This document shows, piece after piece, positions 2,328 to 16,267 of a stretch of DNA of 32,000 nt. This DNA is from Erysipelothrix inopinata. Lineage in GTDB: Bacteria; Bacillota_I; Bacilli_A; Erysipelotrichales; Erysipelotrichaceae. The notes under the pieces are model-generated. The model had not been told where the DNA came from, made no database searches, and saw only the letters and a program-made list of their open reading frames with translations. The stretch lies in assembly GCF_014396165.1 (NCBI RefSeq), contig NZ_CP060715.1, positions 1,650,001-1,682,000 on the forward strand, read 5' to 3'. Each line of letters opens with the position of its first letter. Position 1 is the stretch's first letter. A program made the translations under genes and the position numbers.

Positions 2328-3463
2328 CTAATTGGTTTTATGATTAATTTCCTCCATGATTGATTCTAAAAGCTTCTTTTCTGAATCACTAAATTCCCGT
2401 TGATTTTGGTGCTTGAAGAAATTTTCAAATTGATCTGTAGGTGAAAGATTGAGTACTTCTGTTGCTTCTTGAAGACGTACGTTGTCACTACTACTCAAAT
2501 TGTGATATTGGATTGAAATGATGTTTGGATAAAATTCCTTAAGTTTACTTTTGGGATCATAAATTGTTTCTTCATCCTCTAAAACAGCTTGAATAAAATC
2601 TTCGCTGTATTGTGCATGCTCGATGAGAGCATTAAAAGGCCCTTTGATAATACGGACGTCCCTTTTGGGAATCAGTGGAAGAAGTTCAATGCTTATTTCC
2701 TTTTCATCAAGTGTAATGTAAGGCATTGACTTATGATCTTTTGCTTCAGAGAAAGAATATTTCAAGGGTGATCCTCCATAGCGAATTGTTTCTTTACGAA
2801 GTTTTTGTGGACGATGGATGTGTCCCATTGCTACATAGTTAAAATCGTTTAAGTAGTTGATGTTGATTGCATCAAGTCCCCCTACTTGCGGTCCGATTTC
2901 TGAATCGGAGAGCTCGGGTTGTGTCATTCCATCAATAAAGAATTGATGGACAATTGCGATGTTCCGTTCAAGGGGTTTAGGTTAATGCCCTTGATAACAT
3001 GTTTAAAGGCATCATCATAAGTTGAACCTGTGAAGTCAGGGTCTATATTTTTAATTGTACTTGCTCGTAAGAAAGGAATGGGATAAAAGTTAACCGGTCC
3101 CCATTCATCAAAAATAGATATCGGTACGATTGGAAGTTCGAATCGCGAAATAAGATGAATCTTATGATCGATAAATAGCTTATCTCCTACTCCTAGACGT
3201 TCAACAGAGTCGTGATTTCCAGAAATAATGATGACTTCATAATTTTCCTTAGAAAACGCAATTAAAAGTTCATTCCAAAGTGTGAATGATTCTGAACTTG
3301 GTGCAAAACGATCATAAATGTCACCTGCTACAATCACAACATCCACATCTCTACTCCTAATTTCTTCAAGTATTTGGTTAAATATATAGCGTTGGTCTTC
3401 AATGAGACTGACGTCTTCAAACCTTTTCCCGATATGTAAGTCCGATAGATGAATGATTTTCAT
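2328..3463 (-). pseudogene. sbcD: SbcD/Mre11-family nuclease, interrupted by a single-base frameshift. It could be a true pseudogene or an assembly error.
   Basis: ORF 2924..3463 carries the N-terminal calcineurin-like phosphoesterase motifs (HLSDLHIG, VIVAGDIYDR, SGNHDS). ORF 2328..2927 carries the rest (GGLDAIN..., AMGHIHRPQ). Shifting frame at about 2972-2975 restores a continuous ...NLNP(L)ERNIAIVHQFFIDGMTQPELSDSEIGPQVGGLDA... typical of intact SbcD. Confidence 0.8.
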
Positions 3464-3496: not shown

Positions 3497-3510
3497 TTAG
3501 GTATCATCTC

Positions 3511-3541
3511 TTGCTTAATAAAGGCTTTAATTTGATATAAT
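3511..3541 (+). promoter_or_regulatory. Candidate extended -10 promoter (TGaTATAAT) for the acetyltransferase gene
   Basis: TTGCTT lies at 3511-3516, TG at 3533-3534 and TATAAT at 3536-3541. The -35 spacing of 19 nt is poor, so the call rests on the extended -10. Confidence 0.35.
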
Positions 3542-3566
3542 AATAATTGAATTTATGGAGGTTTTT

Positions 3567-4190
3567 ATGACTGAAAAAGAGAGAATGTTATCAGGGCTTT
3601 TGTACAAAGCTAATGATGAAGAACTAAGACGAGATTCGCATCGTTGTCGTATGTTTAATCACGAATATAATCAAACAACCGTTTTAGACATTCCGCGCCG
3701 AAAGGAAATCATTAAAGAATGGCTTGGATCTGTGGGTGAACATGTTGTACTCGTTCCACCAGTCTATTTTGATTATGGAAATAACACCTATATTAAAGAT
3801 GATTTCTTTGCAAATGCAGATCTTATCATCCTTGATGTCGCTCCAGTTGAAATTGGGAGTCGCGTCATGATGGGACCACGAGTTGGACTCTATACTGCAG
3901 GACATCCAATTGACGCAGCTATTCGTAGTGAGGATTTAGAATTTGGTAAAAAAATTGTGATTGAAGATGATGTCTGGTTAGGTGGTAATGTAGTCGTTAA
4001 CCCTGGAGTTACTATTGGCGCTCGTTCAGTCATTGCTTCAGGATCGGTTGTGACAAAGGACATCCCTTCCGATGTGGTTGCGGGTGGCGTCCCTTGCAAA
4101 GTGATTCGCAAGATTACTGAAAATGACCGTGTCGAATGGCAAAAAGAAAAAGATGAGTACCTTGCCTATCAACTAACTAAAGGAATTTAA
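3567..4190 (+). CDS. maa: Maltose/galactoside O-acetyltransferase family (left-handed beta-helix hexapeptide acyltransferase)
   Basis: The N-terminus MTEKERMLSGLLYKANDEELRRDSHRCRMFNHEYNQT is the typical Maa/LacA N-terminal domain. Hexapeptide repeats (VWLGGNVVVNPGVTIGARSVIASGSVV) follow. The track ORF starts at 3555, but a GGAGG at 3557-3561 sits 5 nt before the ATG at 3567, so I prefer 3567. Confidence 0.8.
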   Translation: MTEKERMLSGLLYKANDEELRRDSHRCRMFNHEYNQTTVLDIPRRKEIIKEWLGSVGEHVVLVPPVYFDYGNNTYIKDDFFANADLIILDVAPVEIGSRVMMGPRVGLYTAGHPIDAAIRSEDLEFGKKIVIEDDVWLGGNVVVNPGVTIGARSVIASGSVVTKDIPSDVVAGGVPCKVIRKITENDRVEWQKEKDEYLAYQLTKGI

Positions 4191-4211
4191 TACCAATTAT
4201 TCTATTCCAAT

Positions 4212-4241
4212 AAAAAAAGCTGAAACTTTCAGCTTTTTTTA
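4212..4241. terminator. Bidirectional rho-independent terminator shared by the convergent acetyltransferase gene and the dlt-like operon
   Basis: The sequence aaaaaaGCTGAAActtTTCAGCttttttt is a perfect stem flanked by an A-run on one side and a T-run on the other. It starts at the stop codon of the 4239..5201 gene. Confidence 0.75.
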
Positions 4242-5201
4242 TACGTGTCGATTCTTTTTCTTAGCAATAATATCAGAATATTCCTTATAATTGCTTTTCC
4301 AAGTTTCGAAATTTGGGTCATCTTTTTTATTTACGAGTTCGGTATTATTCGAAAGGTATTCAGCAAGATAGTTACTTACTTTTAAGGCACCACTGTAGTT
4401 TAAATGATCTCCTGCGTCATAAGTGTCGGTGTTCCAATCAATACCAACTTCATTTAATAATAAATTTAAATCGAGATAATCTATATTATTGTTTGATGCA
4501 ATTTTAGAAACTGCATTATGCTTCGTGTAAGTCCAATTTGATGGACTTGGTGCAGAATAAATAACGATTTTAATATCATGTGATTTTGCGAAGTTGAGAA
4601 TTTTCTCGATGCTTTGTCTCTGGTAACCAGGTATCTTATCTGTTTTTTCTGATTCTCTGACATAGTTCCCTTTGGTGTAAGGTTTTACATCAACTGTATA
4701 ATGATACCCTTTGAGTGGACTTAGAGATGGTTTTTCAGGCTTATCTCTTTTTTTATCGTGCTTCACATAGGACTTCCAATTGTTATGATCTGCGAAGATT
4801 GGGAAGAATTGAGAGAAAAAATCACCGATATTCTTCTCTATCTCATTAACCATTCCTTTATCTCTAAAGAAAAAGTTTGATTCAATGAGGAGCACTTTTG
4901 GTTTTTGCTTTGTTAAAGCTGTTTCGAGGTCTTCAAATCCTTTTAAAAGCGATTGAGCAGAACTTCCGATGTTATAGCCAACATAACCCTTTGTATTCCA
5001 TATCTCCATTGGAGATACCGAGGAATAAGCCTCACTATCACCTAGGATTAAATAGTCCATGGTATTATCTTGTTCTGCAAGAACTCCCTTTAATGCTTTG
5101 GGTTCATCTGAAGGCTTGAGCACACTTGAGAAAGCAACAAGCAATAAAGAAAGGATAATGAGAAATAGAATACTTTTGAATATATTTTTATGCTTTTTCA
5201 T
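4239..5201 (-). CDS. Membrane-anchored extracytoplasmic SGNH/DltD-like acyl-transferase or esterase, copy 2 (last gene of the operon)
   Basis: It has an N-terminal signal-anchor (IFKSILFLIILSLLLVAF), a block-I-like LGDSEAYSS motif and a C-terminal DAGDHLN motif (candidate Asp/His). It is a paralog of 7128..8072, about half identical by eye. The SD TAGGAGG overlaps the stop codon of the upstream MBOAT. Confidence 0.65.
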   Translation of the reverse strand: MKKHKNIFKSILFLIILSLLLVAFSSVLKPSDEPKALKGVLAEQDNTMDYLILGDSEAYSSVSPMEIWNTKGYVGYNIGSSAQSLLKGFEDLETALTKQKPKVLLIESNFFFRDKGMVNEIEKNIGDFFSQFFPIFADHNNWKSYVKHDKKRDKPEKPSLSPLKGYHYTVDVKPYTKGNYVRESEKTDKIPGYQRQSIEKILNFAKSHDIKIVIYSAPSPSNWTYTKHNAVSKIASNNNIDYLDLNLLLNEVGIDWNTDTYDAGDHLNYSGALKVSNYLAEYLSNNTELVNKKDDPNFETWKSNYKEYSDIIAKKKNRHV

Positions 5202-5210
5202 GTTATCCTC

Positions 5211-6800
5211 CTAAAATCCTGCATAGATGATATCTACAGGTGCATACCCGTTACCATATGCTCCAAAAATTACGATTACTAAAATAAATGTGTAGGTCAG
5301 ACTCCAACGTGCCCATGTTGGCCACGTGATAACCGTTTGGAATGGATCGAACCCCTTCTCTTTCAACATATCAACTGCGAAGACGACGATAACTGCAATG
5401 AGGACTACTGCTATATCGACGATGTTGAAAGCAGGAACACTGTTTAGTCCATTTACAAAATATGAAAGTCGAAATTTAAAGATGACATTTTTAAACATCA
5501 TAATGAGCTTTTGGATACTTTCGACTCTGAAGATTAGCTCACCAAAGATAATAATCACAGACATTTTTACTGTTTGAATAAACCTTAAGGTGAACGGATG
5601 TTGATCTAACTTCAAGACGTCTTTAATTTTGATAAATACCGGTTCAAATATAAGAGCTAATGTGATTAAGGTAAAATAATACATTCCGTATAAAACAAAA
5701 TTCCATCCAGCACCATGCCAAAAGCCATTGCAAAGCCAAACAACAAACAATGCAATTGCATTCGTAATGATAAGCGACGCATTTTTACCGAATTTTTTTC
5801 GTGTTTTCTTTGTCAGTGATTTAATATGGCGCGAAAGCATAACTGGATAAAAGACATAGTCCTTTAACCATGCTCCAAGTGTCATATGCCAGCGTTTCCA
5901 AAATTCTGTAACAGTCTTAGCAAAGAATGGTTGGCGAAAGTTTTCAGGTACTTTAATATTGAATATATCACTGGTTCCGATACAAATATCAACGATACCG
6001 GAAAAGTCCATATATAATTGGATAGTATAAATGAGTGCTCCAAACAAGATAACTGATCCTGAAAAATTACTATGATTCACATCAAGGATTGCGGAAACAA
6101 GTGCATTGAGACGATCCGCGATTACTATCTTTTTAAAGAATCCCCAGATGATTCGTTGCAAACCGCCACTAAGCGATGTCATTGTAATAGGATTCCCAGC
6201 ATATAATGATGGCGCAATATCGTTATATCTTGTAATCGGTCCCTGCATGATAGTTGGAAAAAAACAAAGATAGAGACACAATTTTAGAAAGTTCTTTTCG
6301 GGTTGAATGACACCTCTATAAATATCCACGCAATATGATATTGCCTGAAGTGAATAGAATGAAATCCCCAGTGGAACAATAAATTTCATAATTGGAATTT
6401 CAACACCAAAAGAAAGTGATGAAACTATTGTTTGGACGTTTTTAGAAATAAAGGGTGAATATTTCAATACAATCAGAATAAGAAGTACGAACCCAATAAC
6501 TATTTTCAAGAAATGTCTCTTTTTAATGAGTGCTTGTGTCTTTAATTCACGGAGATTCTGACTTGCTTCATCCTCTTTAGGAATACTTTTAGAATCGATA
6601 TGACTGATACCCAATCCGAATAAATATATCAACAACGTCGTAAGTAAAACAAATACAAATTGCCACTTACTGATTAAAATATAGAATACAAAACTTGAAA
6701 ACAGTAAAACCCCCCAGCGAAACTTTTTAGGGGCTAACTGATAACTTAGTAGTGTAATGGGGAGAAAAAGTACAAAATATACGGGCGATACGTATGACAC
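5211..6800 (-). CDS. MBOAT-family membrane O-acyltransferase (DltB/AlgI-like) with a C-terminal DltX-like extension, copy 2
   Basis: The protein is polytopic and hydrophobic. It carries the MBOAT signature NFRQPFFAKTVTEFWKRWHMTLGAWLKDYVFYP with the invariant His. The C-terminus is ...FGAYGNGYAPVDIIYAGF. The GTG start at 6800 shares its G with the TAG stop of the carrier gene. Confidence 0.85.
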   Translation of the reverse strand: MSYVSPVYFVLFLPITLLSYQLAPKKFRWGVLLFSSFVFYILISKWQFVFVLLTTLLIYLFGLGISHIDSKSIPKEDEASQNLRELKTQALIKKRHFLKIVIGFVLLILIVLKYSPFISKNVQTIVSSLSFGVEIPIMKFIVPLGISFYSLQAISYCVDIYRGVIQPEKNFLKLCLYLCFFPTIMQGPITRYNDIAPSLYAGNPITMTSLSGGLQRIIWGFFKKIVIADRLNALVSAILDVNHSNFSGSVILFGALIYTIQLYMDFSGIVDICIGTSDIFNIKVPENFRQPFFAKTVTEFWKRWHMTLGAWLKDYVFYPVMLSRHIKSLTKKTRKKFGKNASLIITNAIALFVVWLCNGFWHGAGWNFVLYGMYYFTLITLALIFEPVFIKIKDVLKLDQHPFTLRFIQTVKMSVIIIFGELIFRVESIQKLIMMFKNVIFKFRLSYFVNGLNSVPAFNIVDIAVVLIAVIVVFAVDMLKEKGFDPFQTVITWPTWARWSLTYTFILVIVIFGAYGNGYAPVDIIYAGF

Positions 6801-7030
6801 TATGCTTCGTCTCGCAATCTACACATTAAGTTCCATAATGCACTCGCTGAGTTAAAGTTAGCTGGCACTAAATCGATGGGCGAAATGTCAACATCGAATT
6901 CTGATTCAAGTTCGGTAACGAGTTCAAGAATTGACATAGAGTCTAAATGTCCCCCGTCTACAAGATCGGTTACTGTATCATAATCGATAGTAGGATTAAT
7001 TTGATTTAAAATTGCTAGTAGTTTTTCCAT
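6800..7030 (-). CDS. DltC-like aminoacyl carrier protein (phosphopantetheine attachment site), copy 2
   Basis: The protein reads MEKLLAILNQINPTIDYDTVTDLVDGGHLDSMSILELVTELESEFDVDISPIDLVPANFNS..., with the LDS Ser motif in the DltC position. The track ORF starts at 7063, but an AAAGGAG SD sits 6 nt before the ATG at 7030. That start gives 76 aa, the same length as copy 1. Confidence 0.85.
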   Translation of the reverse strand: MEKLLAILNQINPTIDYDTVTDLVDGGHLDSMSILELVTELESEFDVDISPIDLVPANFNSASALWNLMCRLRDEA

Positions 7031-7127
7031 GTTTGTCTCCTTTAGTATTAAGTATTTCTTCACTTAATATTCTAGTATGTATTGATAACAAATAAGTGTA
7101 AGAATGATGATAAATTGTAAATCACAC

Positions 7128-8072
7128 TTAAGATTTTTTTGCTTTGATTATTTCTGCGTATTTTTGATAATCTTCTTCCCAATTAGTATAATTGGAATTG
7201 TGTCGCAAATCCTCTAAGTTTGTATTCTTTGATAAGTACTCCGATATATATTTTGTAACTTTTAGCGTACCATTAAAATTTAGATGGTCGCCAGCATCAT
7301 AGGTATCTTTGTTCCAATCAATTTCTAATTGTTTCGTAAGTAGATTAAGATCAACGTATTCGCAACCATATTCCTTTGCCAGATCTGCTACTGTATTATG
7401 ATTTGAATAGCCCCAATTTACAGGAGTAGGTGCTGAGTAGAAGATAACTTTTATATCATTGTTATTACAAATTTCCATAATTTGATCAAGAATAAATTTT
7501 TGATACGTTGGTACAGATACTCTATTTTGAGTTGGATTAACATATTCCCCTTTTGTATAAGGTTTTACCTCAAAGCGGTATCGATATCCTTTCAGTGGAT
7601 TTGAAACAAACTCTTGATCATCAAAGGACGGTAATTTTCCTTCTTTGATCATCTTTTTCCAATTTGTATGATCATTAAATATTGAAAAGTGGTTCGTGAA
7701 TAATGTTGATATGAAACTTTCCGCATCATTAATGAACCCTTTGTTTCTGAATATAAAATTAGATTCAATTAATAATATTTTAGGCTTTTGATTCTCAATT
7801 GCTTTTTGAAAAACATCCAACCCTCTCTGAAGTGTTTGTGCGGAAACTCCCAGATTGTAGCCTGTATACCCTCTTTCATTCCAAATTTCCATGGGCGAAA
7901 TAGAAGTATAGGCCTCACTATCTCCGAGAACTAGATAATCAACCGAATTTTCTTTTTCCGATTCAATACCAGATATTTCTTTAACAGAAAATCCCTTTGA
8001 AAGAACCAGTAAAATAAGTCCAAGTATTGTGACAAAGAGTATGAATTTCATAAGTTTTTTTCCTTTTTTCAT
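7128..8072 (-). CDS. Membrane-anchored extracytoplasmic SGNH/DltD-like acyl-transferase or esterase, copy 1
   Basis: It has an N-terminal anchor (LMKFILFVTILGLILLVL), a VLGDSEAYTS motif and a DAGDHLN motif. The SD TAGGAGG overlaps the stop of the upstream MBOAT. Confidence 0.65.
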   Translation of the reverse strand: MKKGKKLMKFILFVTILGLILLVLSKGFSVKEISGIESEKENSVDYLVLGDSEAYTSISPMEIWNERGYTGYNLGVSAQTLQRGLDVFQKAIENQKPKILLIESNFIFRNKGFINDAESFISTLFTNHFSIFNDHTNWKKMIKEGKLPSFDDQEFVSNPLKGYRYRFEVKPYTKGEYVNPTQNRVSVPTYQKFILDQIMEICNNNDIKVIFYSAPTPVNWGYSNHNTVADLAKEYGCEYVDLNLLTKQLEIDWNKDTYDAGDHLNFNGTLKVTKYISEYLSKNTNLEDLRHNSNYTNWEEDYQKYAEIIKAKKS

Positions 8073-8082
8073 TCAAGACCTC

Positions 8083-9672
8083 CTAGAATCCAGCGTAAAT
8101 AATATCTACTGGGGTGTATCCGTTGCCATATGCGCCGAAGACAACAATTGATACTATGAAGACATAGGAAAGTGTCCAACGTGCCCAGATTGGCAAGGAA
8201 TTTAGTTTATCAAGAGGGTTAATATTACGTTCTTTAAGGAAATCTACAATAAATACGAGTATTATTGCAATCAGAACAATCCAAGCGTCCCCTATGTCAA
8301 ACTTGAAACGTGCCAATAAATCTGTAGTGAGCTCAGAAACATTAAAATTAAATAAAATATTCTTGAAAATGATCAATATCTTACGTATACTCTCCACACG
8401 GAATATAAGTTCACCAATCATTATGATTAGTGCCATTTTGGTTGCTTGAATCGTACGTAACAATATCTTATGGTTGTCGAGGTGTAATATTGTTTTGACT
8501 TTTTCCATAAACGGTTCAACAATCAAAGCAAGTGTAATGAGTGTGAAATAATACATCCCATACATGACAAAATTCCAACCTGAACCATGCCAGAATCCAT
8601 TACATAACCAAACCACAAACAACGCAATCGCATTAGTAATAATTAAAGAGGCATGTTTTCCAAACTTTTTACGCGTTTTCTTAGTCAATGATTTAATTCT
8701 TCGGGATAACATGACCGGATAGAATACATAATCTTTCAACCATGATCCCAAAGTAATATGCCAACGTTTCCAAAAGTCAGTCACTGTTTTTGCAAAAAAT
8801 GGTTGTCTGAAGTTTTCGGGAAGTTTGATATTGAAAATTTCGGCGGTGCCTAAACTAATATCTACAATACCGGAGAAATCCATGTAGAGCTGAATGGTAT
8901 AGATTGCTGCCCCTAAAAGCATAATTGAACCTGCAAATTGCGCATTATCAGCATCGATAATTGCAATCACAAGTGAGTTGAGGCGATCAGCAATCATTAT
9001 TTTTTTGAAAAGACCCCAGAAGATTCGCTGGATACCATGAACAAACGAATCGGAGTTAATGGCTGTTCCTGCAAAGAGTGTCTCTTTAACATCACTATAA
9101 CGTGCAATCGGTCCTTGCATAATTGTAGGGAAGAAACTGAGAAAAAGAAGTAATTTAAAATAGTTTCTTTCAGCTGAAACGACGCCTCTATAGACATCAA
9201 CACAGTATGAAATGGCTTGTAAAGAATAGAAAGAGATACCCAAAGGAACCACAAACTTTAATATTGGAACTTTAGCTTCTATTGACAGATAAGCCAGAGC
9301 CGAATTTATAGAAGATGTAATGAAAGGCGCATACTTTAGAACTATTAGTGTTCCGAGGATTATAATAATCGTCCACTTTGTTACCCTCTTCTTTTTGAAT
9401 TGGCTTTGTTGTCTTTCAACAGTCGCAATTTCAGGTTCAAGATCCTGTTTCACTAAGCTTCGTTTCGAAATGAAATCAAGCAACAACCCCGCACTATAAA
9501 TTACGAATGTTGTGATGATTATGATTAAAATCAACCATGAACTTACAAGAAAATAAAATAGCATACTTACCAATAACAACGTTACCCACCGATATTTTGA
9601 AGGGAATACTTGATAAATAAGAAATGTAAATGGCAGAAACAGAGCAAAATAAAGTGGTGAAACGTACGACAC
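8083..9672 (-). CDS. MBOAT-family membrane O-acyltransferase (DltB/AlgI-like) with a C-terminal DltX-like extension, copy 1
   Basis: It carries NFRQPFFAKTVTDFWKRWHITLGSWLKDYVFYP and ends ...FGAYGNGYTPVDIIYAGF. The GTG start at 9672 overlaps the carrier TAG stop (TAGTG). At 529 aa it is the same length as copy 2. Confidence 0.85.
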   Translation of the reverse strand: MSYVSPLYFALFLPFTFLIYQVFPSKYRWVTLLLVSMLFYFLVSSWLILIIIITTFVIYSAGLLLDFISKRSLVKQDLEPEIATVERQQSQFKKKRVTKWTIIIILGTLIVLKYAPFITSSINSALAYLSIEAKVPILKFVVPLGISFYSLQAISYCVDVYRGVVSAERNYFKLLLFLSFFPTIMQGPIARYSDVKETLFAGTAINSDSFVHGIQRIFWGLFKKIMIADRLNSLVIAIIDADNAQFAGSIMLLGAAIYTIQLYMDFSGIVDISLGTAEIFNIKLPENFRQPFFAKTVTDFWKRWHITLGSWLKDYVFYPVMLSRRIKSLTKKTRKKFGKHASLIITNAIALFVVWLCNGFWHGSGWNFVMYGMYYFTLITLALIVEPFMEKVKTILHLDNHKILLRTIQATKMALIIMIGELIFRVESIRKILIIFKNILFNFNVSELTTDLLARFKFDIGDAWIVLIAIILVFIVDFLKERNINPLDKLNSLPIWARWTLSYVFIVSIVVFGAYGNGYTPVDIIYAGF

Positions 9673-9902
9673 TATGCCTCGTCTCGCAATCTACAAATTA
9701 ACTTCCACAATGAATCCATAGAATTGAAATTAGCTGGTATTAAATCTATCGGTGAAATATCGATATCAAACTCTGATTCAATTTCAGTAACGAGTGATAA
9801 GATTGAAAGTGAATCAAGTAAACTGTCATCTACAAGTCCCGTTGCTTTTTCATAATCAATGCTTGGGTTGATTTCTACGAGTATATCTAATAATTTATCC
9901 AT
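9672..9902 (-). CDS. DltC-like aminoacyl carrier protein, copy 1
   Basis: The 76-aa protein reads ...GLVDDSLLDSLSILSLVTEIESEFDIDISPIDLIPANFNS.... It resembles DltC around the LLDS serine. An AAAGGAG SD lies inside the 3' end of the decarboxylase gene. Confidence 0.85.
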   Translation of the reverse strand: MDKLLDILVEINPSIDYEKATGLVDDSLLDSLSILSLVTEIESEFDIDISPIDLIPANFNSMDSLWKLICRLRDEA

Positions 9903-9904
9903 AA

Positions 9905-11089
9905 TTATTGCTCCTTTGCCATGTTTAATGGGTATGTTTCAATCGAATTTCTAACTTTTGTGAGTCCTTTTGCTTCTGAGTAGAAGTATACTTGTGGTAA
10001 GTCGCGACTTAGAAAAAGTGCGATTCCTTCAGTAACTGAGTAGGCTCCTACCTTGTCAAAAATAAGGAAATCTCCTATATTTACATTCTTAAGTTCGCAA
10101 CTCTTTACAAGAATATCGCTTGTCGTGCATAACGCACCACAAAGTGTCCAAGATTCTGTTTCATCGCGTTGCGATACATGAGTTTCAATATGTTTAAAAG
10201 GTGGTGTCTTCATTGCCATTGACTGTCCGAAGTAATTTACTTGGTGCATTCCCCCATTAACGATGGCGATATGAAGGTCACGATGATGTTTTATATCTTC
10301 AATGCGAGTTACGTAGTGACCACAATTAGCGACAAGGTATCGCCCTAATTCTACTGTTACCGGTAAAACTTTTGCTTGTTTCTCTAATGCCTCGTAAAGC
10401 GCAGTCGTCATAACATCCTCAAATTTTTCATCTTCTTCAAAGTAATCGATGGGTAAACCCGGACCATATTCTAACGAAAGTTTGGATGAATCTAAATAGG
10501 GTAAAGAGATGACAAACTCATTGAGTTTTCTAAAGTCTCTTTCATATTTAGTGGCTGCTTTTCGCTGTGTCCCAACAAAATAGTGAATCCCAACTATATT
10601 GAGACTTGGATATTGTGAAATATTTTCGCATATCGAAGTAATATCTGCTTTAGACATTCCAAATTGACTTCCTGAAGATAAACGCAAATAAACATTAAGT
10701 GTGGCATTGAATTCTTGTGAAGCAGCAAAGAGTAGCTCCCAATGTCTTAAAGATTCTGCTGTATAAACGATCGTTGAACCGTACTTTTCCACAACCTTAT
10801 CAATGTCTGACTTTCCTTTAAATACTCCAGAAAGTACAATTTTCGACATATCAATTCCAAGGTCTTCGCAGATATGGAACTCACCAAACGAACAGACCTC
10901 GAAAGTGTCAATATGGGGTTCCAATACTTTCACAAGAAATGGATTGGCCTTCATTGCATAACATAGTTTCGCATTTGAATTAAGATGCTTCCTTACCTCT
11001 GAAATATGGTCCGTAAGTGCATCAACGTCAAAGATATAAGCGGCATGTTCGAATAAATCTTGGTGTTCTAGGATTAGTTTTGAATTCAT
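9905..11089 (-). CDS. Fold-type III PLP-dependent decarboxylase (DapDC/ODC/BtrK-like group IV decarboxylase)
   Basis: Motifs seen: the PLP-lysine motif CYAMKANPF, GIHYFVGTQ, the glycine loop EYGPGLP, ELGRYLVANCG (EPGR-like), CGALCTTSDIL (catalytic Cys region) and VGAYS. An ATGA start/stop overlap joins it to the upstream ligase gene. Confidence 0.8.
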   Translation of the reverse strand: MNSKLILEHQDLFEHAAYIFDVDALTDHISEVRKHLNSNAKLCYAMKANPFLVKVLEPHIDTFEVCSFGEFHICEDLGIDMSKIVLSGVFKGKSDIDKVVEKYGSTIVYTAESLRHWELLFAASQEFNATLNVYLRLSSGSQFGMSKADITSICENISQYPSLNIVGIHYFVGTQRKAATKYERDFRKLNEFVISLPYLDSSKLSLEYGPGLPIDYFEEDEKFEDVMTTALYEALEKQAKVLPVTVELGRYLVANCGHYVTRIEDIKHHRDLHIAIVNGGMHQVNYFGQSMAMKTPPFKHIETHVSQRDETESWTLCGALCTTSDILVKSCELKNVNIGDFLIFDKVGAYSVTEGIALFLSRDLPQVYFYSEAKGLTKVRNSIETYPLNMAKEQ

Positions 11090-12591
11090 AGTGATTGATA
11101 CTCCAGTCTAATTTGTTTTCGGTCAAGCTTGCCATTATTGTTGAGGGGTAAGTTTTCAAATTGCTTGATAATAGTTGGAACCATATAAGACTCAACTTTT
11201 TCAATAAAATATTTCTTCAATTCGGTAGCATCAATTGAACCACTATAACAGAGAATAATTTGATGTTTTTCTTCTATATAGAAGCAACACGCCTGATTTA
11301 CTGATGTATTTTTATAGGCCATAACTTCAATGCCCTCTAATTCAATACGATGTCCCATGTGCTTGATTTGGAAGTCTTTACGACCCACGTAATAAAGCTT
11401 GTTATCGGGCATTCTATATCCCAAATCACCCGTACGATACATGCGTTCAGGATAAACTTTGTTGAGAGGATTTTGTACGAAAAATTTTTCTGTTTGTTCG
11501 GGATTGTTGTAGTAACCCAGGGCAAGACATCTTCCAGTTACACATATCTCCCCTTTTTGTTCGTATTCAGTAATGAGATGATTGGTTTCGTCGAGAAGAA
11601 AGACTTCTTCATTAAGGAATGACTTCCCGATTGGCATCGCATAATCATCATTTAGCGTTTCAGGGATTACTTCATAGGTGCAATTGCATGTAATCTCAGT
11701 AGGTCCGTACAGATTAACGTAAAGAACTGAAGGTAAAGACTTTTGAAGTTTCTTTAGAATGGGTAAAGGCATTTTCTCACCACTAAACATGATTTTATTG
11801 ATATGCTCAGGAACTTTATAACTCAGTCCTTTGAATTGGACGAGCATGCTAAGGGCAGATACGGCCCAGATTAAAGTCGTAATTTCATGATCAATAAGAT
11901 AATCCATTAATGAAGTTATCACAGAAAAGTATCTCTTCGGAATAACAACAAGAGTTGCTCCGGTTGAAAGGGCACTGTATATATCTTTGACTGAAACATC
12001 AAAATCAAAAGGTGCCTGATTTCCAATGATATCTTTATCAGTTATCTTGAAGGTCGTAGTAAATTCATCAATGAAATCAATGACAGAGCCATGACTTACA
12101 ATGACCCCTTTAGGAACACCCGTTGTTCCCGAAGTGAAATTACAATAAAGCGGATCTGTATCTAAAGCAGAACATTGAACTTTATTCAGCACATTTATAT
12201 CAGGTACTTCAGAAATAACATCTTGATAATTCAAGGTTTTTCCTGAATATTGTATTGTTGAAGGAAGGCTTGATTCATATGTAATCATGAGTTTTGCATT
12301 ACTAATATCAAGGATTTGTTGAATTCGTCCTTCATGTTGCTTTGGATCTATGAAAATATAGAAGCACCGTGCATAGGCAACTCCCATGAAGAGGCTCAAC
12401 GCTTCAGGTCCCTTCTCCATAAAAATTATGATTGGGCTTTTGGGTACCATTAGCTTTGAAAATACAGTTCCACTAGACTGCGCATGGTATAAATAGTCGC
12501 CATAAGTTAGTAATTTATCTTCACAGACTATTGCTTTTTTATCACCGTACAGTTCAGCTGTTCTCTCTAAATACTCAGTTATATTTTTCAT
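11086..12591 (-). CDS. DltA-like stand-alone amino-acid adenylating enzyme / carrier-protein ligase (ANL superfamily)
   Basis: Core motifs seen: FTSGTTGVPKGV (A3), NQAPFDFDVSVKDIY (A4), NLYGPTE (A5), YRTGDLG (A7), GRKDFQIKHMGHRIELEGIE (A8, the DFQIK form typical of DltA) and NGKLDRK (A10). At 501 aa it has no C or T domains. An ATGA overlap joins it to the kinase gene. Confidence 0.85.
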   Translation of the reverse strand: MKNITEYLERTAELYGDKKAIVCEDKLLTYGDYLYHAQSSGTVFSKLMVPKSPIIIFMEKGPEALSLFMGVAYARCFYIFIDPKQHEGRIQQILDISNAKLMITYESSLPSTIQYSGKTLNYQDVISEVPDINVLNKVQCSALDTDPLYCNFTSGTTGVPKGVIVSHGSVIDFIDEFTTTFKITDKDIIGNQAPFDFDVSVKDIYSALSTGATLVVIPKRYFSVITSLMDYLIDHEITTLIWAVSALSMLVQFKGLSYKVPEHINKIMFSGEKMPLPILKKLQKSLPSVLYVNLYGPTEITCNCTYEVIPETLNDDYAMPIGKSFLNEEVFLLDETNHLITEYEQKGEICVTGRCLALGYYNNPEQTEKFFVQNPLNKVYPERMYRTGDLGYRMPDNKLYYVGRKDFQIKHMGHRIELEGIEVMAYKNTSVNQACCFYIEEKHQIILCYSGSIDATELKKYFIEKVESYMVPTIIKQFENLPLNNNGKLDRKQIRLEYQSL

Positions 12592-13946
12592 ACTTCGTCC
12601 TCTACTAGTAACGATACCGTCACAATAAATTTACTTGCGGTTTGATGTACTTCAAAGTTACCACCCAGTTGCTGCATAACATTTGCACATGTTTTTAGCC
12701 CAATGTTAGTACTCTTTGAATTCATTTTTCCAATATCTTTAAAATTTTCAAATTCTAATACATAGTTTTCACCACGATCTAAGCCTGTGATAATTACCCC
12801 CTCTTTCAATGCGTAACGACTGATGTTACTAAATAAATTATCAAAGAGACGGTGAAGATACTGAACATCAACGCGTATGACCTTATCGGTTTCTTCAAGA
12901 TTTACAGTTACTTCGAAATCATTTGCCTGAAGATCAAATACTCGTTCATAAATCAATTGAGGCAACAGCACCATAAGTTCGTATTCTTGTGTATTAGTAT
13001 CCATGAATCCTTCATTAAAGTTAAAGGAATATTGGAACATTTTATCGGTAATTAGTTTTAATTGAAGTGTTTTATCTTTACTACGGCTGATATAGTCTCT
13101 TTTCTTTTCTTCACTCAATTCAGGATGTTCATCTAATACCTCCATGTAACCTATCAATGCTGTGAGAGGTGTACGGACATCATGAGACAATTCACTTACC
13201 AGGTCATAATTAGTTTTTACGACTTCTTGTTCTCGTTTCATCTGATCAACCAATGAAAAACGCATAGAATCAACATGATAGGCAAGCTGTGTTAGTTCAC
13301 TACACCCTTCCTTTGTAACAGGATAGTTAATATTTCCACATTCAATTTGTGTTACTTCATCGGAGAGTCTTTTGACTTTACGAATGATTTTATTAGTGAA
13401 TAAAATTTGTAAGAACATAAACATGAGGATTCCAAAGCCTATTGAACCTATTTTGATGAGATTGTACCAAAAGACTTCCGTTGATTCACTGACATATAAC
13501 ATAAAGTTACCATCAGCAAATTGAATATCACGAACAGGATATGCAATGGTCGTCTCTAATACTTCATCGTCAAAACCCTTAACTTCTTCCACAACAGTTT
13601 CATCAAGATAAACAGGATCGGTCTCTGACCAATGACCGGATTCATAAACTACAAATCCCTCTTCATCAATCAAGAAAAGATAAACGTCTGGATTTTGCTT
13701 TATCCATGAGGACATTTTATAGTAGTCCATTGAAGAAAGATTATTATCGACAACATAATCTTCGAATGAATCTTCGTATGCGAGACGTCGTGACTCAACG
13801 GCACTTTGTTTGAGATAAAATTTTTCGATAAGTTGTGCCCCTGTAAGATACAAAATCCAACTAAACAGCGAACAGATAATTAAGCTTATGAGAAAATACG
13901 CAATATGAATTGTTCTTAATCGCTTAAATTTCAAATTTTCCATCAA
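12588..13946 (-). CDS. Sensor histidine kinase: two TM segments flanking an extracytoplasmic domain of about 125 aa, then HisKA plus HATPase
   Basis: TM1 is IHIAYFLISLIICSLFSWILYL and TM2 is IKIGSIGFGILMFMFLQILF. The H-box is SELSHDVRTPLTAL and the N-box is LFDNLFSNISRYA. It overlaps the response regulator gene by 23 nt. Confidence 0.85.
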   Translation of the reverse strand: MMENLKFKRLRTIHIAYFLISLIICSLFSWILYLTGAQLIEKFYLKQSAVESRRLAYEDSFEDYVVDNNLSSMDYYKMSSWIKQNPDVYLFLIDEEGFVVYESGHWSETDPVYLDETVVEEVKGFDDEVLETTIAYPVRDIQFADGNFMLYVSESTEVFWYNLIKIGSIGFGILMFMFLQILFTNKIIRKVKRLSDEVTQIECGNINYPVTKEGCSELTQLAYHVDSMRFSLVDQMKREQEVVKTNYDLVSELSHDVRTPLTALIGYMEVLDEHPELSEEKKRDYISRSKDKTLQLKLITDKMFQYSFNFNEGFMDTNTQEYELMVLLPQLIYERVFDLQANDFEVTVNLEETDKVIRVDVQYLHRLFDNLFSNISRYALKEGVIITGLDRGENYVLEFENFKDIGKMNSKSTNIGLKTCANVMQQLGGNFEVHQTASKFIVTVSLLVEDEV

Positions 13947-14634
13947 TACGATACCCCTTTCCCCATACGGTTTTTATGATTGAATCATTCTGACTTGTAT
14001 CCAGTTTCTTTCTAATATTGAAGATATGAACCATGATAGTATTGTTTGCGGATGCGAAATAAGGTTCATTCCAAATTTCTTCAAACAGTTGTTTCGCATC
14101 GAACACTCTTCCTGGATTGGTAATCAACAAGAATAGGATATCTGCTTCTACAGATGTGAGGTCAATTTTCGAATTATTACGTCGTACTGTTTTGTTTTTA
14201 AGATCAAAGTCAGTTCCTTCAAAGGTCGTAATTGTTTTGTCTTTTTCATTGTATCCATAATTATAAATGCGATAACGTCTGATTAATGCCTCAACCTTAG
14301 CAAGAAGTTCTACTTTAGAAAACGGCTTGGAGAGGAAATCATCACCCCCGTTTGAATAGGCTTCAACAATATCGATCTCTCCAGATTTTGCTGTTAGAAA
14401 TAAAATAGGCGCTTTCGTCATTTCTCGGATCTTAATACACGCTTCAAGTCCGGTGACACGAGGCATCATAATATCGAGAATTATTAAGTCAAAGAGATTA
14501 TTGGAATCGGTGATGATGTCAATAGCATCTTGGCCGTCAACAGCTTCAGAAACATCGTAACCTTTAAATTCAAGTTGCAATCGGATGACTGCACGAATAT
14601 CTTCTTCATCATCAACAATGAGTATTTTTTTCAT
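13924..14634 (-). CDS. OmpR/PhoB-family response regulator
   Basis: The receiver domain has ILIVDDEED, LIILDIMMP (phospho-Asp), LFLTAK and SKPF. The C-terminal winged helix ends TVWGKGYRI. An AAGAGGAGG SD precedes the ATG. Confidence 0.9.
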   Translation of the reverse strand: MKKILIVDDEEDIRAVIRLQLEFKGYDVSEAVDGQDAIDIITDSNNLFDLIILDIMMPRVTGLEACIKIREMTKAPILFLTAKSGEIDIVEAYSNGGDDFLSKPFSKVELLAKVEALIRRYRIYNYGYNEKDKTITTFEGTDFDLKNKTVRRNNSKIDLTSVEADILFLLITNPGRVFDAKQLFEEIWNEPYFASANNTIMVHIFNIRKKLDTSQNDSIIKTVWGKGYRIDGKFEI

Positions 14635-14654
14635 AGATACCTCCTCTTATTTTT

Positions 14655-14717
14655 ATTATAGCATTGGGTTTGGTTTGAAAATATAAGTAGAAACGTTTAT
14701 TAAGAAATATTAAGAAA
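14655..14717 (-). promoter_or_regulatory. Candidate extended -10 promoter (TGcTATAAT) with two perfect tandem 10-bp direct repeats upstream. This is a putative response-regulator operator for the dlt-like operon.
   Basis: On the minus strand, TATAAT lies at 14655-14660 with TG at 14662-14663. TTTCTTAATA TTTCTTAATA lies at 14698-14717, with a third degenerate copy TTTCTACTTA at 14684-14693. Confidence 0.45.
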
Positions 14718-14723
14718 GTCATG

Positions 14724-14957
14724 CTATTGGCCATCTTGTTGTATTTTTTTTATTATAAATTTAGTTAAGAAAAATGAAATAATCAGTGTGCATAGAATGA
14801 GAAAGATAAAAACAGAATCCATCCAAGATGCTTTCTCAGGACTAGGATAATAACCGCCTTCTGATACAATTTCTGAAATCGATGCAATTATATATTCATT
14901 AAAGAGTAGAAATGTAAATACCATTGATATAATAAGTGCTTTTACGTTATTTGACAT
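14724..14957 (-). CDS. Small (77 aa) two-TM membrane protein of unknown function, directly upstream of the two-component system
   Basis: The protein reads MSNNVKALIISMVFTFLLFNEYIIASI...SWMDSVFIFLILCTLIISFFLTKFII. The track ORF starts at 15002, but an AGGGAG SD sits 6 nt before the ATG at 14957. I recognise no homolog. Confidence 0.5.
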   Translation of the reverse strand: MSNNVKALIISMVFTFLLFNEYIIASISEIVSEGGYYPSPEKASWMDSVFIFLILCTLIISFFLTKFIIKKIQQDGQ

Positions 14958-15026
14958 AGTAATCTCCCTATTACTATAGTAATGGCCTGGTGTGAATATC
15001 ATGTGTAATTTTAATGATAAGTCATG

Positions 15027-15062
15027 TAAAAAAGCCTGTACTCATGAAATGTACAGGCTTTT
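15027..15062 (-). terminator. Rho-independent terminator of deoB
   Basis: The minus strand reads AGCCTGTACatttcatgaGTACAGGCT followed by TTTTTT. It begins 15 nt after the deoB stop. Confidence 0.8.
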
Positions 15063-15076
15063 AGGTATTAATAGGT

Positions 15077-16267
15077 TTATTTAAGTAAATTTAAAATTGA
15101 ATGACCGTTTGCAGTAGGTTCAACCCCAAATGCATCAGTGATTGTAGCACCAAGATCTGCGAATGTGTGTGACTTAGGAAGCAATCCACTTCCCTCAAAT
15201 TGAGGTGAATAGAAGAGTACTGGAACCTCTTCTCGAGTATGATCTGTTCCTGTGTGGGTTGGGTCGTTACCGTGGTCAGCAGTAATGATTAAGAGGTCAC
15301 GTTCACCAATAAATGGTAAGAGTTCCCCTAATTGGCCATCAAATTCTTCAAGAGCATCACCATAACCTTGAGGATTACGACGGTGACCAAATAGTGCATC
15401 AAAATCAACGAGATTCACAAACAAGAAACCATTAAAGTCCATATCTTTTACAATACGAATTGTTTCTTCCATACCATGATGGTTTGATTTTGTACGGTAA
15501 GCATCTGTAATGCCTTCATTATCGAAGATATCAACAATTTTACCAACACTAATTACATCATAATTAGCTTCTTTAAGTGAGTCTAATGCAGTTTTTCCAA
15601 ATGGTTTTAAAGCGTAGTCATGGCGGTTAGGAGTACGTGTGAATTCTCCTTTACCAGGTCCTACGAATGGTCGTGCAATAACACGCCCTACTTTCCATTC
15701 ATCACGCATTGTAAGTTCACGTGCAATCTCACAGCAGCGATAGAGTTCTTCAAGACCAAATGTTTCTTCATGAGCAGCAATTTGTAATACAGAGTCAGCA
15801 GAAGTATAAACAATCATATCTCCTGTTTTCATATGTTCTTCACCAAGTTCATCAAGAATAACGGTTCCACTTGATGAGTAGTTACCGATGATACCATGTC
15901 CGGTACGAGCAGTTAGTTCATCAAGTAATTCTTTAGGGAATCCTGTCTCTGTAAAAGTAATGAATGGGTTTTGGATATTTAATCCCATCATTTCCCAGTG
16001 TCCTGTCATGGTATCTTTACCATTTGACGCTTCAATCATCTTAGTATAATAAGCAGCGGGATGATCTACTTTCTTAACACCTTTTATTTCATGGAGATTT
16101 CCAAGACCAAGTTTTTCCATATTTGGCATCTTTAAACCACCAACAAATTCAGCAATATGTCCGAGTGTATCGGTACCTAAATCGCCAAATTTTTCTGCAT
16201 CGTGTGCTGCGCCAGCACCGACAGAATCCATAACAATTGTAATGATACGATCAAATCTCTTCGTCAT
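15077..16267 (-). CDS. deoB: Phosphopentomutase
   Basis: The protein has [38 protein letters not shown] and ...[22 protein letters not shown]. The track ORF starts at 16321, but an AAGGAGGA SD precedes the ATG at 16267, which matches the normal DeoB N-terminus. Confidence 0.9.

Follow-up and report, generated by a model that had tools for sequence, protein, structure and literature searches.

A Dlt-related operon with a type III decarboxylase and two putative export branches in Erysipelothrix inopinata, and its predicted role in envelope acylation

Organization of the locus

The subject of this report is a ten-gene operon on the minus strand of Erysipelothrix inopinata contig NZ_CP060715.1, which occupies positions 4239 to 14634 of a 32,000-nucleotide stretch (contig positions 1,650,001 to 1,682,000). 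This whole stretch is referred to below as the window, and all coordinates are positions within it unless a locus number is given. The operon combines an amino-acid ligase, carrier proteins and membrane-bound acyltransferases that recall the D-alanylation (Dlt) pathway with a pyridoxal phosphate (PLP) decarboxylase and a two-component system. Sequence comparison, structural models and analogy with characterized enzymes together suggest that it probably encodes an inducible, carrier-dependent pathway that acylates an extracytoplasmic acceptor in the envelope with a cationic omega-amino-acyl group. That the group is specifically beta-alanyl (or gamma-aminobutyryl, the acyl form of GABA) and the acceptor a glycopolymer we regard as possible rather than probable. 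The features of the locus, in the direction of transcription, are as follows.

14698-14717, minus strand: tandem direct repeat, two copies of TTTCTTAATA; candidate response regulator-binding site, proposed from its conservation
14655-14663, minus strand: extended -10 promoter element TGcTATAAT, read by eye; kept in L006 (the nearest Erysipelothrix metagenome-assembled genome, MAG) and L005 (Erysipelothrix aquatica)
13924-14634, minus strand: response regulator of the OmpR/PhoB family, 236 aa (ORF listing, Pfam, NCBIfam)
12588-13946, minus strand: histidine kinase, membrane sensor, 452 aa (ORF listing, Pfam, NCBIfam)
11086-12591, minus strand: ligase, a stand-alone amino-acid adenylation enzyme of 501 aa, predicted to load the carriers
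9905-11089, minus strand: type III PLP decarboxylase of the Orn/DAP/Arg family (DAP, diaminopimelate), 394 aa; predicted substrate, carrier-tethered Asp or Glu
9672-9902, minus strand: acyl carrier protein 1 (ACP1), 76 aa, phosphopantetheine serine Ser31
8083-9672, minus strand: MBOAT1 (membrane-bound O-acyltransferase), 529 aa, DltB-fold core with a C-terminal extension ending in IIYAGF
7128-8072, minus strand: SGNH1, SGNH-fold ectoprotein of 314 aa with an N-terminal membrane anchor, predicted final transferase
7031-7127, minus strand: spacer of 97 nt between the two carrier-MBOAT-SGNH trios, carrying the Shine-Dalgarno (SD) sequence of ACP2; read from the sequence
6800-7030, minus strand: acyl carrier protein 2 (ACP2), 76 aa
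5211-6800, minus strand: MBOAT2, 529 aa, with the same IIYAGF tail as MBOAT1
4239-5201, minus strand: SGNH2, SGNH-fold ectoprotein of 320 aa
4212-4241: bidirectional intrinsic terminator, common to the operon and the convergent acetyltransferase gene (3555-4190, plus strand)

An earlier reading of the window from its letters (the first-pass annotation) had described ten genes in this order, and ten co-directional open reading frames (ORFs) are present on the minus strand at the coordinates listed. It had also claimed translational coupling along the unit, and the junctions agree with that description. Thus 4-nt ATGA overlaps join the kinase to the ligase (12588-12591) and the ligase to the decarboxylase (11086-11089), the stop codon of each carrier gene has one base in common with the GTG start of the following MBOAT gene (9672 and 6800), and a TAG-GAGG overlap of stop codon and SD sequence stands ahead of both SGNH1 and SGNH2. 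The sole uncoupled junction is the spacer between SGNH1 and ACP2. The proposed promoter-to-terminator unit also has its two ends, an extended -10 element at 14663-14655 and a strong bidirectional hairpin at 4212-4241. The hairpin, AAAAAAAGCUGAAA-G-UUUCAGCUUUUUUU, folds with a dG of -15.4 kcal/mol (z = -5.08), a value that none of 200 shuffled sequences equaled, and because an A-run and a U-run flank it, it should be able to terminate the convergent acetyltransferase gene as well. A generic promoter and terminator scan gave counts equal to those of shuffled sequence and missed this terminator; direct reading, folding and conservation were used in its place. Within the spacer there is an imperfect inverted repeat (AAGTGTGA/TTACACTT) together with a weak promoter-like sequence, TTGTTA-16-TATTAA. 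The spacer possibly contains a weak internal promoter or a processing hairpin, and branch 2 might be separately expressed or processed. An Rfam scan of positions 3500-15500 at E <= 0.1, the spacer included, returned zero matches, and therefore no riboswitch or leader was detected in this interval.

In the public annotation (QNN60313-QNN60323, H9L01_08030-08080) the genes bear generic or misleading names, among them 'AMP-binding protein', 'alanine racemase', 'acyl carrier protein', 'SGNH/GDSL hydrolase family protein' and 'hypothetical protein'. The architecture had not been recognized at first pass as a characterized system, and we likewise found no published characterization. In the literature surveyed, which did not extend to the Schultz 2023 paper on the Dlt mechanism, there was no account of a cassette comprising ligase, decarboxylase, carrier, MBOAT and SGNH protein.

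The operon proteins compared with Dlt

Searches with profile hidden Markov models confirmed the expected domains: AMP-binding in the ligase (191 bits, Pfam), PP-binding in the carriers (20.6 bits for ACP1 and 24 for ACP2), MBOAT in MBOAT1 (55 bits) and Orn_Arg_deC_N and Orn_DAP_Arg_deC in the decarboxylase (60 and 58 bits). The first-pass annotation had described the operon as a relative of Dlt distinct from Dlt itself, and the NCBIfam equivalog models are in accord with this. The ligase scores 267 bits against DltA (TIGR01734, cut-off 560), the two carriers 21.5 and 19.3 bits against DltC (TIGR01688, cut-off 52) and the MBOATs 153-154 bits against DltB (TIGR04091, cut-off 375), which is the only relative of the MBOATs in NCBIfam; the ectoproteins have no match to DltD. 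The top NCBIfam match of the ligase is the DltA subfamily model at 292 bits, closely followed by AA-adenyl-dom at 290, both under their cut-offs, and that of the carriers is the AmcB ACP of cispentacin biosynthesis (38 bits for ACP1, which scores 25 bits with DltC).

The phosphopantetheine-bearing Ser31 of the carriers is kept in all 86 homologues aligned. ACP2 is 71% identical to ACP1 by BLASTP. Its longest ORF begins at GTG 7063, and initiation at ATG 7030, which has its own SD sequence (AAAGGAG), gives a protein of 76 aa. The shorter form is backed by the BLASTP alignment to ACP1, which starts at Met12 of the longest ORF, and is the form annotated by NCBI.

The ligase and its specificity pocket

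When a profile of the ligase family was compared with the PDB, the scores were 324 bits for TycA, 313 for GrsA, 292 for DltA and 238 for HitB, with the beta-amino-acid adenylating enzymes as a group at 215-238 bits. Because of these family and structure scores the ligase is best described as a generic stand-alone adenylation domain. Membership of the beta-amino-acid adenylation clade (HitB/IdnL1) was considered and rejected, since at about 238 bits the family stands no nearer to this clade than to DltA or to the adenylation domains of nonribosomal peptide synthetases (NRPS).

The ten Stachelhaus positions, mapped by hand from the core motifs, read D-V-K-S-M-S-L-C-N-K in the window and are invariant in 85 homologues (about 45-50% identity) except for an L/M alternation at position 299. 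The D235-type Asp and the A10 Lys are kept, and the Lys at 239 is fixed. We take the corresponding code of Bacillus subtilis DltA to be D-L-M-S-M-C-T-V-A-K, where Cys is the residue that selects D-Ala. By this comparison, six of the ten positions differ, including a change of Met to Lys at 239 and of the D-Ala-selecting Cys to Ser. The invariance of the pocket implies that all members of the family probably activate one substrate, and, together with the departures from the DltA code, it agrees with the suggestion made at first pass that the acyl group is something other than D-Ala. A fixed Lys239 fits a substrate that bears a carboxylate.

The decarboxylase and its probable substrate

The best NCBIfam match of the decarboxylase is TIGR03099, at 161 bits and under the cut-off. 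The first-pass annotation had itself named a housekeeping lysA, paired with a D-alanine-specific ligase, among the findings that would undo its interpretation. Against the lysA model (TIGR01048) the protein scores 141 bits, where 298 are needed, and in all 55 loci with enough flanking sequence its gene has the ligase and carrier genes beside it. We therefore do not regard it as the housekeeping lysA. In a comparison of the single sequence with the PDB, 6KNH and BtrK stand ahead of the DAP decarboxylases, and with a family profile the order is BtrK (170 bits), 6KNH (165) and the best DAP decarboxylase (143). BtrK, the top solved relative, is an 'L-glutamyl-[BtrI acyl-carrier protein] decarboxylase'. 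Among 87 homologues there is no variation in the PLP-binding Lys47, in Glu247 or in Cys321; the motifs ExGR, CxxxD and GAY are invariant too, and the protein has the CT(x)xD of BtrK and 6KNH in place of the CExxD of DAP decarboxylases. Homologues of the decarboxylase as such number thousands in Bacillota.

The public name 'alanine racemase' for this gene invites the alternative that the operon performs ordinary D-alanylation, with the supposed decarboxylase acting as a racemase-like supplier of D-Ala to a DltA-type ligase. An Ala_racemase_N match of 48 bits (Pfam) and the first rank of the DltA subfamily model for the ligase could be cited for it. However, the racemase match covers only the N-terminal barrel common to these enzymes, and with 20 bits the protein falls short of the 168 that the alr equivalog requires. 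At its C-terminus it has the Orn_DAP_Arg_deC domain, the decarboxylase motifs are invariant and the full-length profile matches are all to decarboxylases. The ligase pocket lacks the D-Ala-selecting Cys and all four Dlt equivalog tests fail. We reject the racemase name and consider D-alanylation extremely unlikely.

A closer parallel is found in antibiotic biosynthesis. VinN loads 3-methylaspartate onto the carrier VinL, where it is decarboxylated by the PLP enzyme VinO, and FlvN acts in the same way with Asp (PMC11284099). As reviewed elsewhere, BtrJ, CtaD and FlvN ligate Glu or Asp to an ACP through the side-chain carboxyl, and the type III PLP enzymes BtrK, CtaF and FlvO then remove the alpha-carboxyl of the ACP-bound amino acid to leave GABA or beta-alanine (PMC11350588). 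By analogy, the decarboxylase of the window may act on Asp or Glu that is already tethered to a carrier.

One may ask whether decarboxylation would instead come first, on a free metabolite (free Asp to beta-alanine, for example), the ligase then loading the product. The order of the genes, ligase-decarboxylase-ACP, is silent on the order of the reactions, and free substrates are indeed used by most characterized type III decarboxylases, several of the PDB relatives among them. In NRPS domains with free beta-Ala as their substrate (code VDxVISLADK) the amine-binding Asp is displaced, whereas in the operon ligase this Asp is in the canonical position, and the invariant Lys239 fits a substrate that still has its carboxylate. 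Further, the best solved relative, BtrK, is ACP-dependent, and CtaF, a homologous enzyme from an equivalent cassette, is inactive on free substrates (PMC7183216). For these reasons we think decarboxylation of a free substrate decidedly unlikely.

A different substrate can also be imagined. If the ligase were to load meso-diaminopimelate by one end, the decarboxylase could trim the distal D-center to yield a lysyl-carrier and, ultimately, lysyl esters on the surface. The enzyme does belong to the family of DAP decarboxylases, as its lysA score reflects, and Lys239 could bind the distal carboxylate. The bulky pocket residues Leu/Met299 and Leu322, with no acidic residue to receive the distal amine, favor a short substrate, and the CExxD motif of DAP decarboxylases is replaced, as described above. 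It would also be simpler to load free lysine directly. A pathway through diaminopimelate is therefore very unlikely, and tethered Asp or Glu is the substrate that we prefer.

Two MBOAT-SGNH branches with a predicted export role

Among solved structures, DltB is the only sequence relative of the MBOATs, and the match is confined to residues 138-414. An AlphaFold2 (AF2) model of MBOAT1 (mean predicted local distance difference test, pLDDT, 82) likewise has DltB as its top Foldseek match (E 4e-10). The extension beyond the DltB-like core comprises about 115 residues, modeled as helices at 402-441, two long hydrophobic helices at 460-481 and 495-514, and a tail of low confidence at 515-529 that contains the terminal IIYAGF. 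His305 (in WxRWH) and His362 (in GFWHG) are kept in 71/71 family members and align with the DltB motifs. The tail follows the pattern x-I/V-Y-x-x-F with Tyr in 70 of the 71 sequences; variants include LIYAGF, FIYAQF and FVYMQF, and the first position is I, L or F, not strictly F. Both MBOATs of the window end in IIYAGF.

The FxYxxF acyl-shuttle arrangement has been demonstrated for DltX and PatA (PMC12148441). No ORF of the operon encodes a separate DltX-like microprotein that ends in FxYxxF; instead the MBOATs themselves carry the motif and, because both possess it, DltX would not be needed.

The ectoproteins have no Pfam or NCBIfam family above cut-off. The AF2 model of SGNH1 (pLDDT 91) consists of an N-terminal helical anchor and an SGNH core; the transmembrane (TM) segments are at residues 7-25 in SGNH1 and 10-28 in SGNH2. 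In Foldseek searches with this model TesA/GDSL hydrolases come first (E 1e-7), and PatB and DltD follow at ranks 30 and 39. The first-pass label 'SGNH/DltD-like' therefore holds for the fold, while the kinship with DltD does not extend beyond the superfamily, DltD ranking behind generic GDSL hydrolases. Ser52 (in GDS) and His263 are kept in 58 of 58 family members, Asp259 in 55 and Asp262 in 47. SGNH2 is 48% identical to SGNH1 (BLASTP E 6e-101) and retains the invariant GDS and DxxH in the family alignment. A profile of the ectoprotein family matches 3,497 clusters (50% identity) at E <= 1e-30. Its best match, P0295, is a protein of 924 aa that is matched in two stretches and may represent a fusion or a tandem ectodomain.

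Each branch contains the elements by which MBOAT-SGNH pairs are recognized, namely the catalytic His, a C-terminal Tyr motif on extra TM helices and an adjoining SGNH gene, so far as sequence and models can establish them.

Distribution and linkage of the cassette

In a scan of one genome per species, the single-branch cassette was found in at least 563 species genomes; the true number is expected to be higher, as neither E. inopinata nor E. aquatica is among the matches listed. The single-branch cassette is not rare, occurring in hundreds of gut and soil Bacillota, and only the doubled branch is lineage-specific. A survey of gene neighborhoods showed that a decarboxylase gene between ligase and ACP genes is linked with an MBOAT gene across Bacillota. 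Linkage was counted in 55 loci with enough flank. Ligase, decarboxylase and ACP occur together in 55/55, contiguously in nearly all; an MBOAT is present in 46 and an MBOAT plus an SGNH protein of the same family in 37. A response regulator and histidine kinase adjoin the cassette in 24 of these 37 loci. In the one MBOAT-only locus inspected (L036), the gene after the MBOAT encodes another kind of GDSL/SGNH protein. Clostridium septicum, Enterococcus faecalis and E. aquatica all have the two-component system, ligase, decarboxylase, a 76-aa ACP, an MBOAT of about 503-527 aa and an ectoprotein of about 316 aa.

Trios of adenylation enzyme, ACP and PLP decarboxylase are known from antibiotic pathways and, as noted above, the best NCBIfam match of the carriers is the cispentacin ACP. 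It might be supposed from this that the product of the cluster is a small secondary metabolite, either secreted or bound to the membrane. The linkage data speak against such a product, as the trio is tied either to a Tyr-tail MBOAT and an anchored SGNH protein or to nucleotide-sugar genes, a two-component sensor adjoins it, and there is no condensation, ketosynthase, thioesterase or tailoring enzyme. We find a metabolite cluster scarcely credible.

The duplicated ACP-MBOAT-SGNH trio was seen in one of the 55 loci, L006 (88% identity). In neighbor-joining trees (no bootstraps) both branches fall inside the Erysipelothrix clade, and the single copy of E. aquatica groups with branch 1. This placement and the identities between branches (62% for the MBOATs, 48% for the SGNH proteins and 71% for the ACPs) indicate an old tandem duplication within the genus. 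The branches differ least in the catalytic core of the MBOAT (90-95% identity over residues 281-360) and most in the SGNH protein and at the MBOAT periphery (32-60% for the latter). Such a pattern would be expected if acceptor recognition had diverged. That the two branches may serve two different acceptors, as proposed at first pass, is plausible.

The neighbors of the cassette in other genomes bear on the nature of the acceptor. At least 12 loci of Lachnospiraceae contain the ligase-decarboxylase-ACP trio, with an identical pocket code, without MBOAT or SGNH genes (L064:5116-14822; also L023, L032, L050, L051, L053, L061, L070, L073, L075, L076 and L078). There the trio has a gene for a WbpD-like hexapeptide acyltransferase on one side and one for a WbpE-like DegT aminotransferase on the other, in a locus of WbpA/B/I-like genes for nucleotide sugars and polysaccharide: a UDP-sugar dehydrogenase, GFO oxidoreductase, 2-epimerase, glycosyltransferase (GT) and EpsG. 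The arrangement suggests that here the same acyl group is attached, in the cytoplasm, to a nitrogen of a diamino-uronic nucleotide sugar. Since the trio occurs in both settings, it resembles a portable module that donates acyl groups for glycan decoration, the donor apparently being delivered outside through MBOAT and SGNH proteins or, as we infer, used in the cytoplasm by an N-acyltransferase.

These polysaccharide loci, and the GtrA and GT2 genes that adjoin the cassette in L048, would suit a glycan acceptor. The same chemistry could in principle be directed at a membrane glycolipid, a phospholipid head group or peptidoglycan, in which case the role of the operon would be nearer to that of AlmEFG, MprF or PatAB. 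Erysipelothrix rhusiopathiae has been reported without classical teichoic-acid and dlt genes, and downstream of the C. septicum cassette there are genes for an MGDG-synthase-like GT, a polysaccharide deacetylase and an LPG_synthase_TM protein, of which the first and the last would suit a lipid acceptor, while the set as a whole also fits an envelope and glycan setting. SGNH partners of MBOATs are also known to acylate very different acceptors (PMC12148441). On balance we hold this combination of the predicted chemistry with a lipid or peptidoglycan acceptor to be unlikely.

Several observations were made at individual loci. The cassette is rare in E. faecalis (two contigs); in L003 (366-1274; 1904-9358) the two-component system lies downstream instead of upstream and an IS605-family OrfB/TnpB gene adjoins the cassette, which suggests that the cassette is horizontally mobile. 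Just upstream of the E. aquatica cassette, and divergent from it, is a gene for a 4'-phosphopantetheinyl transferase (ACPS; L005:5733-6329), which would suit a dedicated enzyme for carrier priming; the operon in the window has no neighbor of this kind. Upstream of the C. septicum cassette (L001:2873-5637) are short ORFs with matches to GDSL, MBOAT, DHHW and AlgX, by their look a second, fragmented MBOAT system and probably the remains of a decayed acyl-CoA-type MBOAT/AlgX pathway. Finally, one trio lies outside Bacillota, in a Treponema sp. MAG (L067), and may reflect transfer or a binning artefact; no MBOAT or SGNH gene was detected in the 13 kb covered there.

The two-component system and the upstream repeat

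The response regulator has Response_reg (98 bits) and Trans_reg_C (78 bits) domains in Pfam. The kinase has TM segments at residues ~15-33 and 161-187 around an outside loop of about 125 aa, followed by a weak HAMP match, HisKA (43 bits) and a divergent ATPase domain. Their best NCBIfam matches are the VanR family (212 bits, cut-off 350) and VanS (98 bits, cut-off 400). A VanRS identity was rejected on these scores, VanR and VanS being merely the best-scoring generic relatives. In the ATPase region (residues ~361-444) the G1 and G2 boxes look degenerate by eye (ENFKD, STNIGL); HATPase_c is unlisted for the kinase homologues of E. faecalis and E. aquatica and listed for that of C. septicum.

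The tandem repeat of TTTCTTAATA occupies 14717-14698, at 37 nt upstream of the -10 element, and the window has the 10-mer nowhere else. The repeat is kept as two copies of TTTCTTAAT(A/T), 36-37 nt from the -10, in L006 and in L005, which with the window makes three Erysipelothrix loci. The upstream region of the E. aquatica locus cannot otherwise be aligned with that of the window, apart from this repeat and the -10 element. The repeat is thus a good candidate for an OmpR-family box to which the response regulator would bind, which points to autoregulation.

Directly upstream of the promoter is an ORF of 77 aa (14724-14957, minus strand) with two hydrophobic segments, annotated as hypothetical. 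Its only conservation is in the closest MAG (78%), and it is absent upstream of the E. aquatica cassette. As an equivalent of DltX this ORF was rejected: it has no Tyr motif at its C-terminus, the promoter is located downstream of it, and it does not occur in E. aquatica.

A model for the pathway

The preferred reading may now be stated as a sequence of steps. The adenylation enzyme would activate L-Asp (our preferred guess) or L-Glu, and the side-chain carboxyl would be thioesterified to the phosphopantetheine of either carrier. The type III decarboxylase would then strip the free alpha-carboxyl, giving beta-alanyl-S-carrier from Asp or gamma-aminobutyryl-S-carrier from Glu. Each MBOAT would take the acyl group from a carrier at the cytoplasmic face and, by means of its conserved His, pass it to the Tyr of its own IIYAGF tail at the outer face. 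From there the membrane-anchored SGNH partner would receive it on the catalytic Ser and transfer it to a hydroxyl of an envelope glycopolymer. The two ACP-MBOAT-SGNH branches, presumably the product of the old tandem duplication within Erysipelothrix, would most likely serve two acceptors or two sites. The OmpR-type regulator and its sensor kinase would control the whole operon through the tandem repeat upstream of the promoter.

Several points weigh against this model. Its steps are read from sequence comparison, structural models and analogy rather than from biochemistry or genetics: gene content, folds, conserved catalytic residues, linkage, a pocket unlike that of DltA and the conserved upstream repeat are observed, and the substrate, the attachment through the side chain, the order of steps, the acceptor and binding by the regulator are deduced from them. 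Nothing in the window identifies the acceptor, the flanks being housekeeping genes. The ligase profile is not nearest to HitB/IdnL1, and side-chain activation is therefore not indicated by the phylogeny of the ligase; the reading of its pocket depends on positions mapped by hand and on the code that we take B. subtilis DltA to have. As for the decarboxylase, the lead of BtrK over 6KNH, which is not ACP-dependent, and over the DAP decarboxylases is modest. In addition, the position of His169 (in GIHYF), which aligns with a His of BtrK and 6KNH that we take to stack on the PLP, is Gln in 76 of the 87 family members, with His in the window protein and 10 others. The ATPase domain of the kinase is barely detectable (HATPase_c 14.7 bits, cut-off 26.4), and the frequencies given for the cassette come from a sample.

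Extended to the family as a whole, the model leads to a broader picture that we advance with some reserve, as conceivable but a little short of probable. Hundreds of Bacillota species (many of them gut Lachnospiraceae, Clostridium and Erysipelotrichaceae) would place beta-alanyl or gamma-aminobutyryl esters on envelope glycopolymers by way of decarboxylation on a carrier and a fused-Tyr MBOAT. In E. inopinata the exporter would have been doubled for two acceptors under one envelope-stress sensor, and in some Lachnospiraceae the group would go instead to a WbpD-like N-acyltransferase, to form an N-(omega-aminoacyl) diamino-uronic sugar.

D-alanylation is the textbook route to a less negative Gram-positive surface and to resistance against cationic peptides, and it is a drug target. 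If the model is correct, the operon specifies a previously unrecognized cationic surface modification, for which export machinery of the Dlt type has been re-plumbed to carry another amine-bearing acyl group, made by decarboxylation on the carrier. Because they have no activating alpha-amine, omega-aminoacyl esters should outlast D-alanyl esters chemically, and this greater stability could alter the durability of the charge modification. As the cassette family is abundant in gut Clostridia, it may affect resistance to antimicrobial peptides, phage adsorption and immune recognition in the microbiota.

Flanking genes

The genes that flank the operon in the window include the pur operon, deoB, an xerD-like gene, dinB, recN and a split sbcD. 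GC content across the window is flat (33-39%), so that, when horizontal transfer is considered, there is no compositional sign of recent acquisition. The sbcD gene (2328-3463, minus strand) seems to be divided into two ORFs that overlap by 4 nt; the ORF at 2924-3463 has the appearance of the N-terminal part and that at 2328-2927 has the SbcD_C domain. The split may reflect a frameshift or mark a pseudogene.

Comparison with known systems

In Vibrio, AlmEFG uses a DltA-like ligase and a DltC-like carrier to supply an amino-acyl group, glycine, for lipid A, and so alters the charge of the envelope. AlmG is not an MBOAT, and neither an SGNH protein nor a decarboxylase belongs to the system. The operon resembles AlmEFG in its DltA-like ligase and DltC-like carriers and differs in its addition of MBOAT, SGNH and decarboxylase genes.

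The VinN/VinL/VinO, FlvN/L/O, BtrJ/I/K and CtaD/E/F sets share with the operon a ligase, a stand-alone carrier and a PLP decarboxylase of the Orn/DAP/Arg family that are encoded together. VinN and FlvN are adenylation enzymes, as is the operon ligase, whereas BtrJ and CtaD are ATP-grasp enzymes. All of these sets feed the assembly of polyketide, aminoglycoside or thioamide antibiotics, in contrast to the operon, which leads to an MBOAT/SGNH exporter and has a ligase without specific relationship, by profile, to the beta-amino-acid adenylation clade. A further likeness is to the 'exosortase A system-associated' acyl-CoA ligase and PLP decarboxylase (TIGR03098 and TIGR03099), which are matched by the operon proteins at 190 and 161 bits. 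These scores are far below the cut-offs of 592 and 478, and the models themselves are hypothetical equivalogs in NCBIfam. The matches suggest a related pairing of ligase and decarboxylase in proteobacterial exopolysaccharide loci. The pair is not mentioned in Haft 2006.

With Dlt the operon shares a stand-alone adenylation enzyme, a small carrier, a DltB-fold MBOAT with two His, an acyl-Tyr shuttle motif and an anchored SGNH transferase. It departs from Dlt in components that score below the Dlt equivalog cut-offs, in the ligase pocket, in the added PLP decarboxylase, in its own two-component system and in the doubled carrier, MBOAT and SGNH genes. DltB, moreover, has about 400 aa and no fused shuttle motif, in contrast to the 529 aa and fused motif of the operon MBOATs. 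In this last respect the operon is like PatA/PatB and the AlgI and WssH types, where extra C-terminal MBOAT helices bear an FxYxxF-like end and the SGNH protein is separate (PMC12148441). PatB is among the fold matches of the operon ectoprotein, although the two have no sequence family in common. Those fused-motif systems are described as dependent on acyl-CoA and free of a carrier protein (PMC12148441), whereas in the operon a carrier gene directly precedes each MBOAT gene, with the one-base overlap noted above, and a ligase and decarboxylase are present for supply. If the model is correct, fused-shuttle MBOATs are not limited to acyl-CoA donors, contrary to that generalization. Because it is carrier-dependent like Dlt and has a fused shuttle like PatA, the cassette is a hybrid and, should the predicted chemistry hold, would be the missing one between Dlt and the acyl-CoA-dependent PatA/AlgI systems.

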